Virus record (IMG/VR): IMGVR_UViG_3300028584_000654
Span: 1 to 7,347 of that record
Direction: 5' to 3' (one strand)
DNA length: 7,347 bases
DNA from: a virus
Below, piece after piece: positions 3,707 to 5,110 of the stretch. The notes below the pieces were generated by a model that saw only the letters and a program-made list of their open reading frames with translations, made no database searches and had not been told where the DNA came from. Positions within the stretch are counted from its first letter, which is position 1; each line of letters opens with the position of its first letter. The translations under genes were made by a program, and so were the position numbers.

Positions 3707-3916
3707 ATGAGCGCCACGGGAATGCCGACGAACATCCGCCTTACTCAGCAGGAGCAGGAGCAGTTGAGGCAAAAAGCCATAGAAATCAACAAGTTACTTG
3801 TTAAGCAGGGGCGGCAGCCGCTTAGGGACAGCGAGCTAGTGCACAAAATCCTCGAAAAATCAGTGAGTTATGCGCAGGTAAGCAACAGCGGAGAGATAGA
3901 GCTGGTGTTTGATTAG
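3707..3916 (+). CDS. Small DNA-binding regulator, RHH-like (putative phage repressor / switch protein), 69 aa
   Basis: ATG 3707 has a GGAGG SD (3692-3696) 10 nt upstream. The longer ORF-track N-terminus (from 3590) lacks any such signal and overlaps rep. MPTNIRLTQQEQEQLRQKAIE...LRDSELVHKILEKSV fits a beta-strand / helix / helix RHH pattern and resembles the Arc-like and RLTxxE mobilisation-type RHH proteins I recall. Its orientation opposite to rep matches the repressor position in temperate inoviruses. Confidence 0.65.
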   Translation: MSATGMPTNIRLTQQEQEQLRQKAIEINKLLVKQGRQPLRDSELVHKILEKSVSYAQVSNSGEIELVFD

Positions 3917-3935
3917 TATGGGAGTCCATACCGAA

Positions 3936-3959
3936 GTGGGGGTGTAACAGCACCCCCAC
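3936..3959. other. Perfect 9-bp GC-rich hairpin, GTGGGGGTG-TAACAG-CACCCCCAC
   Basis: The stem is 3936-3944 / 3951-3959 with a 6-nt loop. No T-run follows on either strand. A smaller hairpin precedes it (TATGG-GAGT-CCATA, 3917-3930). Confidence 0.7.
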
Positions 3960-4011
3960 CGCTCGGCGACCGAAAATCAGCAACAGCTGAAAAGCCAGAA
4001 AGGCAAAGAAG

Positions 4012-4194
4012 ATGACCGGATGGATGCTTGCGCTGTTCCTAGAAGGGAGCAAAGCGCCAGACATAACCGCAGGGCCGTACAAAACCGAACAGCAGTGCTT
4101 TATGGCTGGTGATCTCATGAAAGCAGCAGACAAGGCTGCTAGGCAGCTAGAGCAGCTGTACACAATCTCATGCACCGAGCAGCAGGAAGACTAG
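4012..4194 (+). CDS. Hypothetical small protein, 60 aa, co-oriented with the regulator
   Basis: ATG start with only a weak AGG/AAGAAG upstream. The composition looks protein-like to me and it contains two Cys. It is followed by the plus-strand terminator candidate. I recognise no family. Confidence 0.4.
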   Translation: MTGWMLALFLEGSKAPDITAGPYKTEQQCFMAGDLMKAADKAARQLEQLYTISCTEQQED

Positions 4195-4480
4195 AAGCAA
4201 GGCTTCGCCCTGGACAGCTGCGCAGTCCTTGCCTAGTCGGCGGCTGGAATGCACAACGGGACGGATCGCCAAGGAAGCAAAAGCGGTAATCAGCGCGAAG
4301 TGCCGTCGCTGTCGCCGGATCGAACGAAGCACGCGAAAGCCTCCTGAGGTGCCTATAGCATCGCTGGGGGCTTTTTTGTTGGCTTGAGAAAGGCCGCTGC
4401 GCGGGTGCCGTCGCGCATGTAGTGACGGCAGCAGGTCAGGACGTGCGGGCGACTAATGCCCTGCGGGCAGGTCGAGGAAA
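4195..4480. other. Large GC-rich noncoding region with multiple hairpins (candidate packaging signal and/or complementary-strand origin)
   Basis: No ORF of 60 aa or more lies wholly inside it on either strand. Four stems are visible. GCAAGG (4197-4202) pairs with CCTTGC (4227-4232). TGCCGTC (4406-4412) pairs with GACGGCA (4424-4430) and is extended by CTGC (4397-4400) with GCAG (4431-4434). TGCCC-TGC-GGGCA lies at 4457-4469. A 10-bp direct repeat GTGCCGTCGC occurs at 4300-4309 and 4405-4414. Confidence 0.5.
4336..4380 (+). terminator. Candidate intrinsic terminator of the plus-strand transcription unit
   Basis: AAAGCCTCC (4336-4344) pairs with GGGGGCTTT (4366-4374) with one T.G wobble. An inner stem is formed by GGTGC (4348-4352) and GCATC (4358-4362). 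The structure ends in TTTTTTGTT (4372-4380). Confidence 0.55.
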
Positions 4481-4738
4481 TCAACCGTTAAGCAAATCAC
4501 CCTGGGCAACGTGATCAAGAAGCGCTGAAGCCGAATCGCGAGCACGATCAATAACCTGCTGCTGAACGCGGCAGCGCTCCTTGATCTGGCCAATCTCACG
4601 CTCAAGACGAGCAATCATGTCCAGCTGATCGAGATAGGAAAGATAGGCGGCAGCAACAGCCTTGGCGCCAGTGCGCTGGCCGGTGACTTCCTTGAGGCGC
4701 TCAACGTAGTCATCGTCAGCTTGAAACTTGATAAGCAT
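4481..4738 (-). CDS. Small RHH-like protein with coiled-coil-like C-terminal half (ORF B), 85 aa
   Basis: I prefer ATG 4738 because the AAGGA SD lies 9 nt upstream. The ORF-track ATG at 4747 has zero spacing to that SD. MLIKFQADDDYVERLKEVTGQRTGAKAVAAAYLSYL fits a strand-helix-helix pattern. The C-terminal part LDQLDMIARLEREIGQIKERCRVQQQVIDRARD is heptad-like. Confidence 0.65.
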   Translation of the reverse strand: MLIKFQADDDYVERLKEVTGQRTGAKAVAAAYLSYLDQLDMIARLEREIGQIKERCRVQQQVIDRARDSASALLDHVAQGDLLNG

Positions 4739-4880
4739 AGGTACCATTCCTTTTCACCAGGTGAGATCGAGGGAGAGTGAAACGGTACCATTTATTAAAA
4801 ATAACGCAATGATTTTTGGTACCAAAAAAGAGCAAAAAATCTCCTGCAGGATCTGCTGCAGCAAAATTAATGGTACCTAT
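4737..4880. promoter_or_regulatory. AT-rich intergenic spacer with four GGTACC-core palindromes (operator-like array) and a tentative ORF B promoter
   Basis: GGTACC occurs at 4740-4745, 4784-4789, 4818-4823 and 4872-4877. The outer sites form a 12-bp inverted repeat: ATAGGTACCATT (4737-4748) and AATGGTACCTAT (4869-4880). Site 3 is a 16-bp perfect palindrome, TTTTTGGTACCAAAAA (4813-4828). The tentative minus-strand promoter has -35 TTGGTA (4820-4825), a 16-nt spacer and -10 TATTTT (4798-4803). Confidence 0.6.
4834..4861 (-). terminator. Candidate weak intrinsic terminator or attenuator after ORF A
   Basis: On the minus-strand RNA, CUGCAG (4856-4861) pairs with CUGCAG (4844-4849) across a 6-nt loop. 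GAGA and then U6 follow (4834-4839), with a second T6 at 4824-4829. A longer imperfect stem is also possible (4843-4867 with 4893-4916). Confidence 0.4.
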
Positions 4881-5110
4881 CAAAGGTCGATGATTTTCCT
4901 GCAAGCGTCCTGCAGGGCAGAAAGGCGATCATCGAAAACAGTGCTTTCCTGCTGGAAGTCGGACAGCGCGGAACTAAGCTTACGGACCTTGGCCACGAGC
5001 CGAGGATAGTCCTCAATGACGTAAGAAACAGCGTCGGAAGGGTCGCGCCCAGGCGCATAGAGCTTGGCTAGATCGACAAGACGAGAGGGCAAATCAATGG
5101 GCGTTCGCAT
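4880..5110 (-). CDS. Small RHH-like protein with coiled-coil-like C-terminal half (ORF A), 76 aa; apparent paralog of ORF B
   Basis: The ORF-track start at 5149 is a TTG inside the palindrome apex and has no SD. The first ATG (5110-5108) has a weak AGG 8 nt upstream. RTPIDLPSRLVDLAKLYAPGRDPSDAVSYVIEDY fits a strand-helix-helix pattern. It shares architecture and scattered identities with ORF B, for example G/Q-R-x-x-x-x-AV and Y-x-x-x-Y/L-x-x-L. Confidence 0.6.
   Translation of the reverse strand: MRTPIDLPSRLVDLAKLYAPGRDPSDAVSYVIEDYPRLVAKVRKLSSALSDFQQESTVFDDRLSALQDACRKIIDL

Follow-up and report, generated by a model that had tools for sequence, protein, structure and literature searches.

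We analysed a stretch of viral DNA of 7,347 nucleotides (nt) (IMG/VR record IMGVR_UViG_3300028584_000654, positions 1 to 7,347; in the following, the window) and found that three small genes between its gI and rep genes, here called A, B and C, assort independently in related phages. The region from 3.6 to 5.2 kb probably houses the accessory and lysogeny genes of a Pseudomonadaceae inovirus that integrates at dif, and we favour a composition of three separable modules: a gene built into the phage attachment site attP (A), a gene with its own array of four proposed operators (B) and a probable repressor gene with three proposed operators beside rep (C). A first-pass annotation of this DNA had read the three genes as a single multi-component transcriptional switch, and it is this reading that the independent assortment speaks against.

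The open reading frames (ORFs) of A, B and C lie where that annotation had placed them (Table 1), A and B following gI on the viral strand and C on the opposite strand, divergent from rep. It had left room for the ORFs being unconserved or free of purifying selection. We found that they are conserved in relatives, with ratios of nonsynonymous to synonymous substitution rates (dN/dS) between 0.1 and 0.2 (pairwise medians: A, 0.19 from 1049 pairs; B, 0.11; C, 0.20), and therefore regard all three as real genes under purifying selection. As had been proposed, the products appear as small regulators of DNA-binding type without a characterised inovirus homologue, and each gene adjoins a repeat family of its own: a dif-like hairpin at A, the GGTACC array at B and the TGCACACA sites at C. 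The PHROG families matched by the three proteins are all of unknown function. An 88-aa form of B starting at 4747 is unlikely, because the homologues begin with MLIK or MLVK and an AAGGA ribosome-binding site is correctly spaced for the ATG at 4738.

The window represents one circular inovirus genome of about 7.09 kb, with a terminal overlap in which positions 1-256 repeat 7092-7347. Since nearly all genes lie on its minus strand, the minus strand is taken as the viral strand. Using Pfam and PHROGs, rep (with G2P domains), a gV-type single-stranded DNA (ssDNA)-binding protein and gI/Zot were identified; near-identical phage DNA was not found in the GenBank phage collection. With a word-indexed search we obtained four homologues for A and 17 for B; for C there were more than 120, in Pseudomonas, Stutzerimonas and Azotobacter. 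Pattern scans gave 68 IMG/VR loci and 13 genome loci bearing A, the genome scan being made with the A-family alignment, and an exhaustive profile search gave 177 representatives of the B superfamily at 50% identity. Relatives with the same small genes are inovirus-sized contigs (about 7 kb) or prophages from Stutzerimonas stutzeri, S. kunmingensis, Pseudomonas spp. and Aquipseudomonas; others are two P. aeruginosa phages (NEU2023, 17897) and database entries of about 7 kb that were submitted as plasmids of this species. In open-access literature we found no description of the A, B or C proteins, nor of a CTX-type attP in Pseudomonadaceae.

The window contains four copies of GGTACC, each of them inside the 138-nt spacer between A and B. 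The layout of this spacer is constant across lineages with a B-type gene. Site 1 stands directly after the upstream stop codon or an attP arm and is followed by a GC hairpin with a T run (4861-4844 here, an analogous one in relatives), by sites 2 and 3, by a conserved CACCTGGTG-like element and finally by site 4, which the ribosome-binding site precedes and the ATG follows. Measured from centre to centre in 11 arrays, the sites are mostly spaced 44-(22 to 36)-44, with 41 in the first pair of one array; the window has 54-34-44, with a first pair about one helical turn longer. Loci with A but without B lack the array, and phages with B but without A have it. The array thus tracks the presence of B and not of A, which indicates that the sites belong to B.

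Moreover, the motif changes with the first residues of B. Proteins beginning with L(I/V)K(F/L) are accompanied by GGTACC, those with (L/M)LTIRD by GCTAGC, those with KTLTLRD by GATAGC / GCTATC and those with PTIMIRH by GTTAGC / GCTAAC. Specificity residing in the N-terminal strand is expected of ribbon-helix-helix (RHH) proteins, and both B and C show it in silico, in that all operator copies switch together with the strand; for both proteins the argument rests on this joint change of all copies within a conserved scaffold. We propose that B is an RHH protein whose helix 2 continues as a coiled-coil-type helix of about 55 residues. Its dimers would bind the four GGTACC palindromes, which form two pairs with a distance of about 44 bp within a pair (54 bp in the first one here), and the long helices would bridge both sites of a pair, to which a pairing at 44 bp would be suited. 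One pair brackets the terminator after A and the other the B promoter region with the ribosome-binding site, and from these positions B would regulate its own expression and gate read-through from gI and A.

Two side observations concern the same spacer. In many relatives without B, its slot holds a convergent ORF of 140-205 aa. This ORF runs into the 3' end of A and encodes the motif RGRPATGKAM(T/S)xAE(K/R)QRxYRERQK followed by a coiled coil (L036 297-851(-), L047, L041, L017, L016, L044, L003, L015); Pfam assigns it to no family. A cluster of CCTGCAGG-like palindromes at 4843-4955, exact at 4843 and 4909 and with near copies at 4898 and 4948, spans the terminator after A and the 3' part of A; the clustering is suggestive, the genome-wide count not significant.

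In the module of C, exact copies of TGCACACA occur three times in the window, all within 73 nt (3609-3681). The ORF call starts rep at a TTG (3617) inside the first of these sites; the likely start is rather the ATG at 3590, which has an AAGGA ribosome-binding site 7 nt upstream and leaves a divergent control region of 116 nt between rep and C. A consensus scan placed a promoter-like site directed towards rep, TTGACG-18-TAGATT, at 3662..3633 on the minus strand. One TGCACACA copy falls into its spacer, one just downstream and one upstream, the last also lying in the spacer before a TATTAT hexamer that is followed by the GGAGG ribosome-binding site of C. Across 27 distinct relatives the intergenic scaffold is kept and the operator positions vary with residues 7-10 of C: P-T-N goes with TGCACAC, P-A-T with TGCATGCA and G-K-T, less regularly, with sites of the TTGTGAAC / TTGTCACC types. 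In other relatives the slot of C is taken by an Xre-type helix-turn-helix (HTH) repressor (HTH_3, E 7.5e-10) or by a different small strand-helix-helix-like protein.

The replacement of all operator copies in step with the N-terminal strand of C looks like immunity-type switching, as far as aligned loci can tell. Because of this concerted change, and because an HTH repressor can occupy the same slot, C is best read as a replication and immunity repressor, similar to RstR in position and logic and not in fold; it is probably an RHH protein. Dimers of C would bind the three TGCACACA operators, reading the DNA through the N-terminal strand. Of these operators, one precedes the rep promoter, one lies within it and one follows it, and C's own promoter probably has one in its spacer. 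Binding there would set the replication level of the phage and its immunity type.

The third module starts at the attP hairpin, which, judged from sequence comparison, is a folded attP of the CTXphi type. Its layout is invariant across 48 distinct upstream regions: TTCGCATAAT, a central region of about 8 nt, the XerD-like arm TTACGTT(T/C)AAT, a covarying GC stem-loop, the complementary XerD-like arm ATTTAATGTAA, a central region of about 5 nt and the 3' XerC arm ATTATGCG. RNAalifold on 25 relatives gave 32 conserved pairs, of which 13 show compensatory changes, and the XerD arms keep mismatches. Both features of the class are thus present, since the inverted XerC/XerD sites are predicted to fold in ssDNA and dif is regenerated upon integration. 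In integrated copies from Stutzerimonas and Pseudomonas chromosomes (L077-L089), the hairpin and A stand at the left end, and at the right end, after gI and about 7 kb downstream, lies the canonical dif CGCATAATGTATATTATGTTAAAT, which is CGCATAAT-GTATA-TTATGTTAAAT. A hairpin at one end and dif at the other is the outcome to be expected from CTXphi-type integration of folded ssDNA by XerC (PMC3442271). Two of the integrated copies (L078 and L083) carry an extra segment of 185 nt with a XerC arm just before dif.

A and the hairpin are also found at dif in elements without rep, as two tandem units of 1461 nt in S. kunmingensis (L079 8911-11833) and, in S. stutzeri V81, as a unit of about 2 kb (L081 8923-11146). 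They look like satellites beside a full prophage, of the kind known as integrative mobile elements that exploit Xer (IMEXs). Each of the S. kunmingensis units contains the hairpin and A and encodes two further proteins, one of 118 aa whose C-terminal region is RHH_1/RHH_3-like and one of 125 aa.

The start of A is part of this attP. Its ATG (5110-5108) lies inside the 3' XerC arm, and nearly all A loci have ATTATGCG over the start codon and CGCATAAT about 77 nt upstream. The only promoter-like site upstream of A (5181-5208, minus strand) obtains its -10-like hexamer, CATAAT, from the 5' XerC arm TTCGCATAAT, and after integration the DNA upstream of this arm is host DNA. It follows from these two facts that the expression of A must differ between replicative form and prophage. 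Integration also makes A the first gene of the prophage. Two further points were noted at this site: the -35 region of the promoter-like site would be exchanged for host DNA on integration, and in transcripts reading through from gI both XerC arms would pair, which could sequester the ATG of A.

A has no operator array. At the positions that track the operator in B, K4 and Q6 in the hhalign register, it has Pro or Ala, and Asp, so that neither a repeat array nor variation at these positions points to strand-read specificity in A. Binding of the GGTACC array by A was rejected, given that arrays occur without A and are missing from A-only loci. Tracking of hairpin variants by the strand residues of A was likewise rejected, as no covariation was found and MRCALDLESRLVKTA occurs with two different hairpin types. 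In the P. aeruginosa relatives NEU2023 and 17897, and in two further loci (L007, L008), B directly follows the hairpin and A is absent; A is therefore dispensable for having this attP. In the three-module reading, the likeliest activity of A is at or near attP or, via its coiled coil, the modulation of another regulator. Among the candidate roles considered for A, that of a coiled-coil regulator or modulator ranks first, that of an Xer or attP accessory protein second and a part in a joint switch with B and C last, the last because the three genes assort independently.

An accessory role at attP is a tentative alternative that we regard as unlikely. A would be an Xer accessory factor: by binding to the stem of the folded attP or to XerC/XerD, it would promote integration at dif, stabilise it or determine its timing, as a non-homologous analogue of XafT or ORF12. 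Regulators flanking attP have precedents in XafT and P15 of Vibrio IMEXs (PMC12715192), with which A shares the place of a terminal prophage gene, and in XacF1, whose ORF12 lies across attP and has a stabilising effect on integration (PMC5666396). The idea also draws on the ATG within the XerC arm in essentially all relatives, on the persistence of A with the hairpin in mini-elements devoid of rep and structural genes and on the missing operator array. It has to face that integration of the CTX type requires only XerC catalysis on folded ssDNA, no phage factor being known as necessary (PMC3442271), that P. aeruginosa relatives have the hairpin without A and that the strand residues of A do not follow the variable parts of the hairpin. 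Moreover, the overlap of the ATG could be mere compaction, the XerC arm happening to contain an ATG. The first-pass annotation had also considered a recombination-directionality function; this is possible for A only, and A is linked to an Xer/dif attP hairpin and not to an integrase.

A wider version of the same idea, which we hold to be somewhat less probable still, takes the A/B superfamily as a lineage-specific, attP-linked family of dif-integrating Pseudomonadaceae inoviruses and their satellites. Here A would be a non-HTH Xer cofactor acting on the folded attP or on XerC/XerD, with an expression rewired by integration because its start codon and -10-like element are XerC arms. The coupling of A to attP is the part of this region that calls most for an explanation, and it could be new biology.

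The relationship between A and B is of importance for the question of a joint switch. BLASTP detected no similarity between A and B. Comparison of the family profiles by hhalign gave a probability of 92% over 72 colinear columns with 14% identity, and the hidden Markov model of the A family matches B-superfamily representatives, down to E 1.7e-9; one of them, P0221, has a tail intermediate between the families. We accept A and B as distant paralogues, a relationship detectable only by profile. The suspected paralogy with long helical tails is thereby borne out, and the identity of 20-25% that had been estimated by eye has to be lowered to 14%. A relationship of C to B was considered and dropped, since hhalign finds the two unrelated.

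With A and B as paralogues of similar long helices, adjacent in the window and in about 15 relatives, and with all three proteins regulator-like, one may conceive a three-component switch in which A-B heteromers formed through the coiled coils tune repression by C. We consider this improbable. Most of the about 80 A-bearing loci are without B, and B is found where A is missing; in some relatives an HTH repressor or a different small protein replaces C; and the operator arrays track B and C individually.

Even less probable is that the array, together with B, is an architectural accessory region for Xer recombination, comparable to cer/psi with ArgR/PepA or ArcA, and not a transcriptional operator. 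The fixed 44-bp geometry would suit a defined nucleoprotein structure, and in phages without A the array begins 16-20 nt from the XerC arm. In the window and in other A-bearing phages, however, the array lies 231 nt of coding sequence away from attP, and a folded ssDNA attP would carry no duplex accessory region. Site 4 at the ribosome-binding site and ATG of B and sites 1-2 around the terminator fit transcriptional control, as the three-module reading has it.

That reading takes B and C as RHH repressors. The order of secondary structure in RHH proteins (N-terminal strand, helix A, tight G-x-S/T turn, helix B) is seen in AlphaFold2 (AF2) models of both. These are models of monomers, in which the N-terminal strand appears as coil, as expected for a monomer; the fold of A was read by its hhalign alignment to B. 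The model of B, from a 17-sequence alignment (predicted local distance difference test score, pLDDT, 88.5), has a coil or extended segment at residues 1-8, a helix at 9-19, a GQRT turn and a single helix at 24-78, and the family has a conserved C-terminal motif, ...RARDSAxALLDHVAQGDLL. The model of C (pLDDT 88.6) has coil at 1-13, helices at 14-33 and 41-55 and a C-terminal beta-hairpin. In profile searches of PDB the C-terminal halves of the A and B families match only coiled-coil proteins.

Searches with Foldseek against PDB gave for B a top list enriched in RHH proteins (1y9b, NikR, VapB11, MazE-mt1 and FitA), none of them significant (best E 1.8), and no significant match of the B model was found in BFVD. 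FitA-like_RHH matches 5 of 103 B-superfamily members below threshold (best E 1.4e-4). For the C family, NikA-like RHH is the commonest weak Pfam match (16 of 66 members, best E 0.034), and the C profile matches NikA in PDB with E 0.38 over strand and helix A. Because no significant Pfam, PDB or Foldseek match was obtained for the proteins of the window, the RHH fold of A, B and C is proposed rather than proven, the assignment being based on secondary-structure order, turn motif and the comparative operator evidence; likewise, the RHH dimer, its oligomerisation, DNA binding and the identity of the controlled promoters are what we infer. Of the earlier claim that the proteins are RHH-like, the strand-helix-helix order and the operator switching expected of such proteins hold for B and C, and a significant family match did not emerge: the profile searches that had been suggested left the fold unconfirmed. 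As B and C behave like the classical RHH repressors of phages and plasmids (Arc, Mnt, CopG, omega, NikA) yet fail curated thresholds, they may be considered new families of that kind.

That the small proteins are antitoxins or partition proteins of the omega/ParG type maintaining the episomal replicative form is very improbable: an RHH domain with a C-terminal extension is typical of type II antitoxins, there are weak matches to FitA-like, DUF6290 and phrog_5232 'toxin' (E 0.022), and an omega-like RHH protein was proposed for copy control in phage PMBT54 (PMC10534721), but the ORF inventory of the 7.09-kb genome contains no adjacent toxin gene and no ParA-type ATPase, PADLOC gave no matches, and the RHH part is N-terminal, with a tail that is a conserved coiled coil and not a toxin-wrapping segment. 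The missing ParA-type partner also speaks against the partition-like function that the first-pass annotation had entertained, and a defence reading likewise lacks the partner genes it would need.

Several points weigh against the three-module reading and the RHH assignment on which it draws. None of A, B and C reaches the threshold of a curated RHH family in Pfam or NCBIfam, and PDB searches with single sequences and with profiles gave no significant match, only coiled-coil or chance ones. The Foldseek list of C against PDB shows no RHH enrichment and no significant match, leaning towards winged-helix/Myb structures at high root-mean-square deviation. The AF2 models show monomers, so that the dimeric ribbon and the oligomeric state are hypothetical. 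Operator-protein covariation involves adjacent, co-inherited sequence, so that linkage contributes to it. The promoters of B and C could not be placed with confidence, as the consensus scan found only two promoter-like sites in 3500-5300.

Further features of the region are included in Table 1. ORF D lies 3' of C on the same strand and recurs downstream of the repressor whatever its type (RHH, Xre-HTH or other); it may encode a membrane or exported accessory protein, for instance for superinfection exclusion. Between C and D there are two adjacent GC-rich hairpins (3917-3965), which on the viral strand read GTGGGGGTG-N6-CACCCCCAC and GTATGG-N4-CCATAC. Of 89 related loci, 41 have a single exact copy of the GTGGGGGTG-N6-CACCCCCAC pattern, on the viral strand, and the hairpins are candidates for a replication origin or packaging signal. 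In the GenBank record of NEU2023 (L001, PQ144888.1), a 168-aa reverse-strand ORF (6037-6543) spans the B homologue (6184-6444, plus strand) and the GGTACC array, and the B homologue itself is unannotated; this is probably a mis-annotation.

Table 1. Coordinates of genes, proposed operators and attP elements in the window
Feature	Position	Strand	Remarks
Gene A, 76 aa	4880-5110	minus	phrog_13909, E 7e-26
Gene B, 85 aa	4481-4738	minus	phrog_8031, E 3e-26
Gene C, 69 aa	3707-3916	plus	phrog_5642, E 2e-27
GGTACC array, (A/T)(A/T)TGGTACC(A/T)(A/T)(A/T)	4740-4745, 4784-4789, 4818-4823, 4872-4877		proposed operators of B
Terminator-like hairpin, CTGCAG-N6-CTGCAG and T run	4844-4861	minus	just after the A stop codon, between B sites 1 and 2
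Three TGCACACA sites	3609-3616 (inverted), 3643-3650, 3674-3681		proposed operators of C, between rep and C
Folded-ssDNA attP, two inverted dif-like sites	5101-5193	minus	fold -26 kcal/mol, z = -6.1
5' XerC arm TTCGCATAAT	5190-5181		
XerD-like arm TTACGTTCAAT	5173-5163		
Inner GC stem-loop	~5161-5131		
Complementary XerD-like arm ATTTAATGTAG	5129-5119		
3' XerC arm ATTATGCGAA	5113-5104		
gI/Zot	5193-6467	minus (viral)	Pfam Zot
rep (gII-like)	2436-3590	minus	Pfam G2P N- and C-terminal domains; presumed target of C
ORF D, 60 aa	4012-4194	plus	hydrophobic N-terminus, two conserved Cys; weak DUF1482 match, E 0.033

To our knowledge, lysogeny control and regulation in small dif-integrating inoviruses have been worked out almost only in Vibrio and Xanthomonas. 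The window and about 90 related loci suggest that a clade in the Pseudomonadaceae uses different regulatory parts: an RHH-type repressor that is interchangeable with HTH repressors at the rep promoter, a putative autoregulator (B) that would combine an RHH domain and a coiled coil with a rigid four-site operator geometry, and a paralogue (A) fused to a CTX-type attP. The pairs of strand residues and operator motifs are in silico recognition pairs that are open to residue swaps. We know of no phage-encoded factor that acts on folded ssDNA Xer sites, and A is a concrete candidate for one. In addition, A may serve as a marker gene by which satellites and the borders of IMEXs can be located in genomes of Pseudomonas and Stutzerimonas. 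As to kind, B and C are ordinary, though they had not been characterised before.

Among known systems, the attP(+) of CTXphi is the counterpart of the hairpin. In both, two inverted XerC/XerD sites fold in the viral ssDNA with conserved mismatches, dif is regenerated on one side, and tandem arrays with satellites occur at dif (PMC3442271). The attP described here differs in its Pseudomonadaceae host, in a spacer of about 67 nt with its own covarying stem-loop and in a 3' arm that doubles as a gene start. Factors of the XafT/DUF3653 type activate XerD catalysis independently of FtsK. XafT is a DUF3653 HTH protein, whereas Pfam detects no DUF3653 in A or B and the attP of A is of the folded, XerC-type CTX class. 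The likeness of A to XafT of TLCphi, to P15 of dif-type double jelly-roll phages and to ORF12 of XacF1 is positional only, A flanking attP and being terminal in the prophage (PMC12715192, PMC6744903); as in XacF1, the gene overlaps the recombination site (PMC5666396).

In CTXphi, C has its counterpart in RstR with the ig-2 operators. As RstR does from rstA, C diverges from rep; its repeated operators lie over the promoter of rep, repressor and operators change in concert from lineage to lineage in the manner of immunity types, and the phage is an IMEX of the CTX type. RstR, however, is of the HTH type; C is not related to it and is probably an RHH protein, and HTH repressors occupy the slot of C only in some relatives. 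Omega of pSM19035, ParG and NikA are RHH proteins of small size that come from mobile elements and bind short repeats set in arrays. Among families, NikA-like matches C best, if weakly and below threshold, and no ParA partner is encoded. An RHH regulator has previously been annotated in a Pseudomonas inovirus, the omega-like ORF13 of PMBT54 (PMC10534721), and this phage was not among the matches in phage searches with the window genes.

Mnt and Arc of phage P22 belong to the Arc/MetJ RHH superfamily, and Mnt consists of an RHH domain and a C-terminal coiled-coil tetramerisation domain. Like these small phage repressors of 70-85 aa, the proteins described here would have a strand and then two helices, the second of them preceded by a G-x-T/S-x-S/K cap, as well as short palindromic operators overlapping promoters; B and A would share with Mnt a C-terminal helical oligomerisation tail. 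Sequence homology to Mnt or Arc is not detectable in A, B or C. The predicted B tail continues helix 2 directly for about 55 residues, unlike the separate domain of Mnt, and its operators form two pairs about 44 bp apart and not one composite site. It is this fixed operator geometry, together with the long helix, that is unusual in B when compared with Arc, Mnt and CopG.

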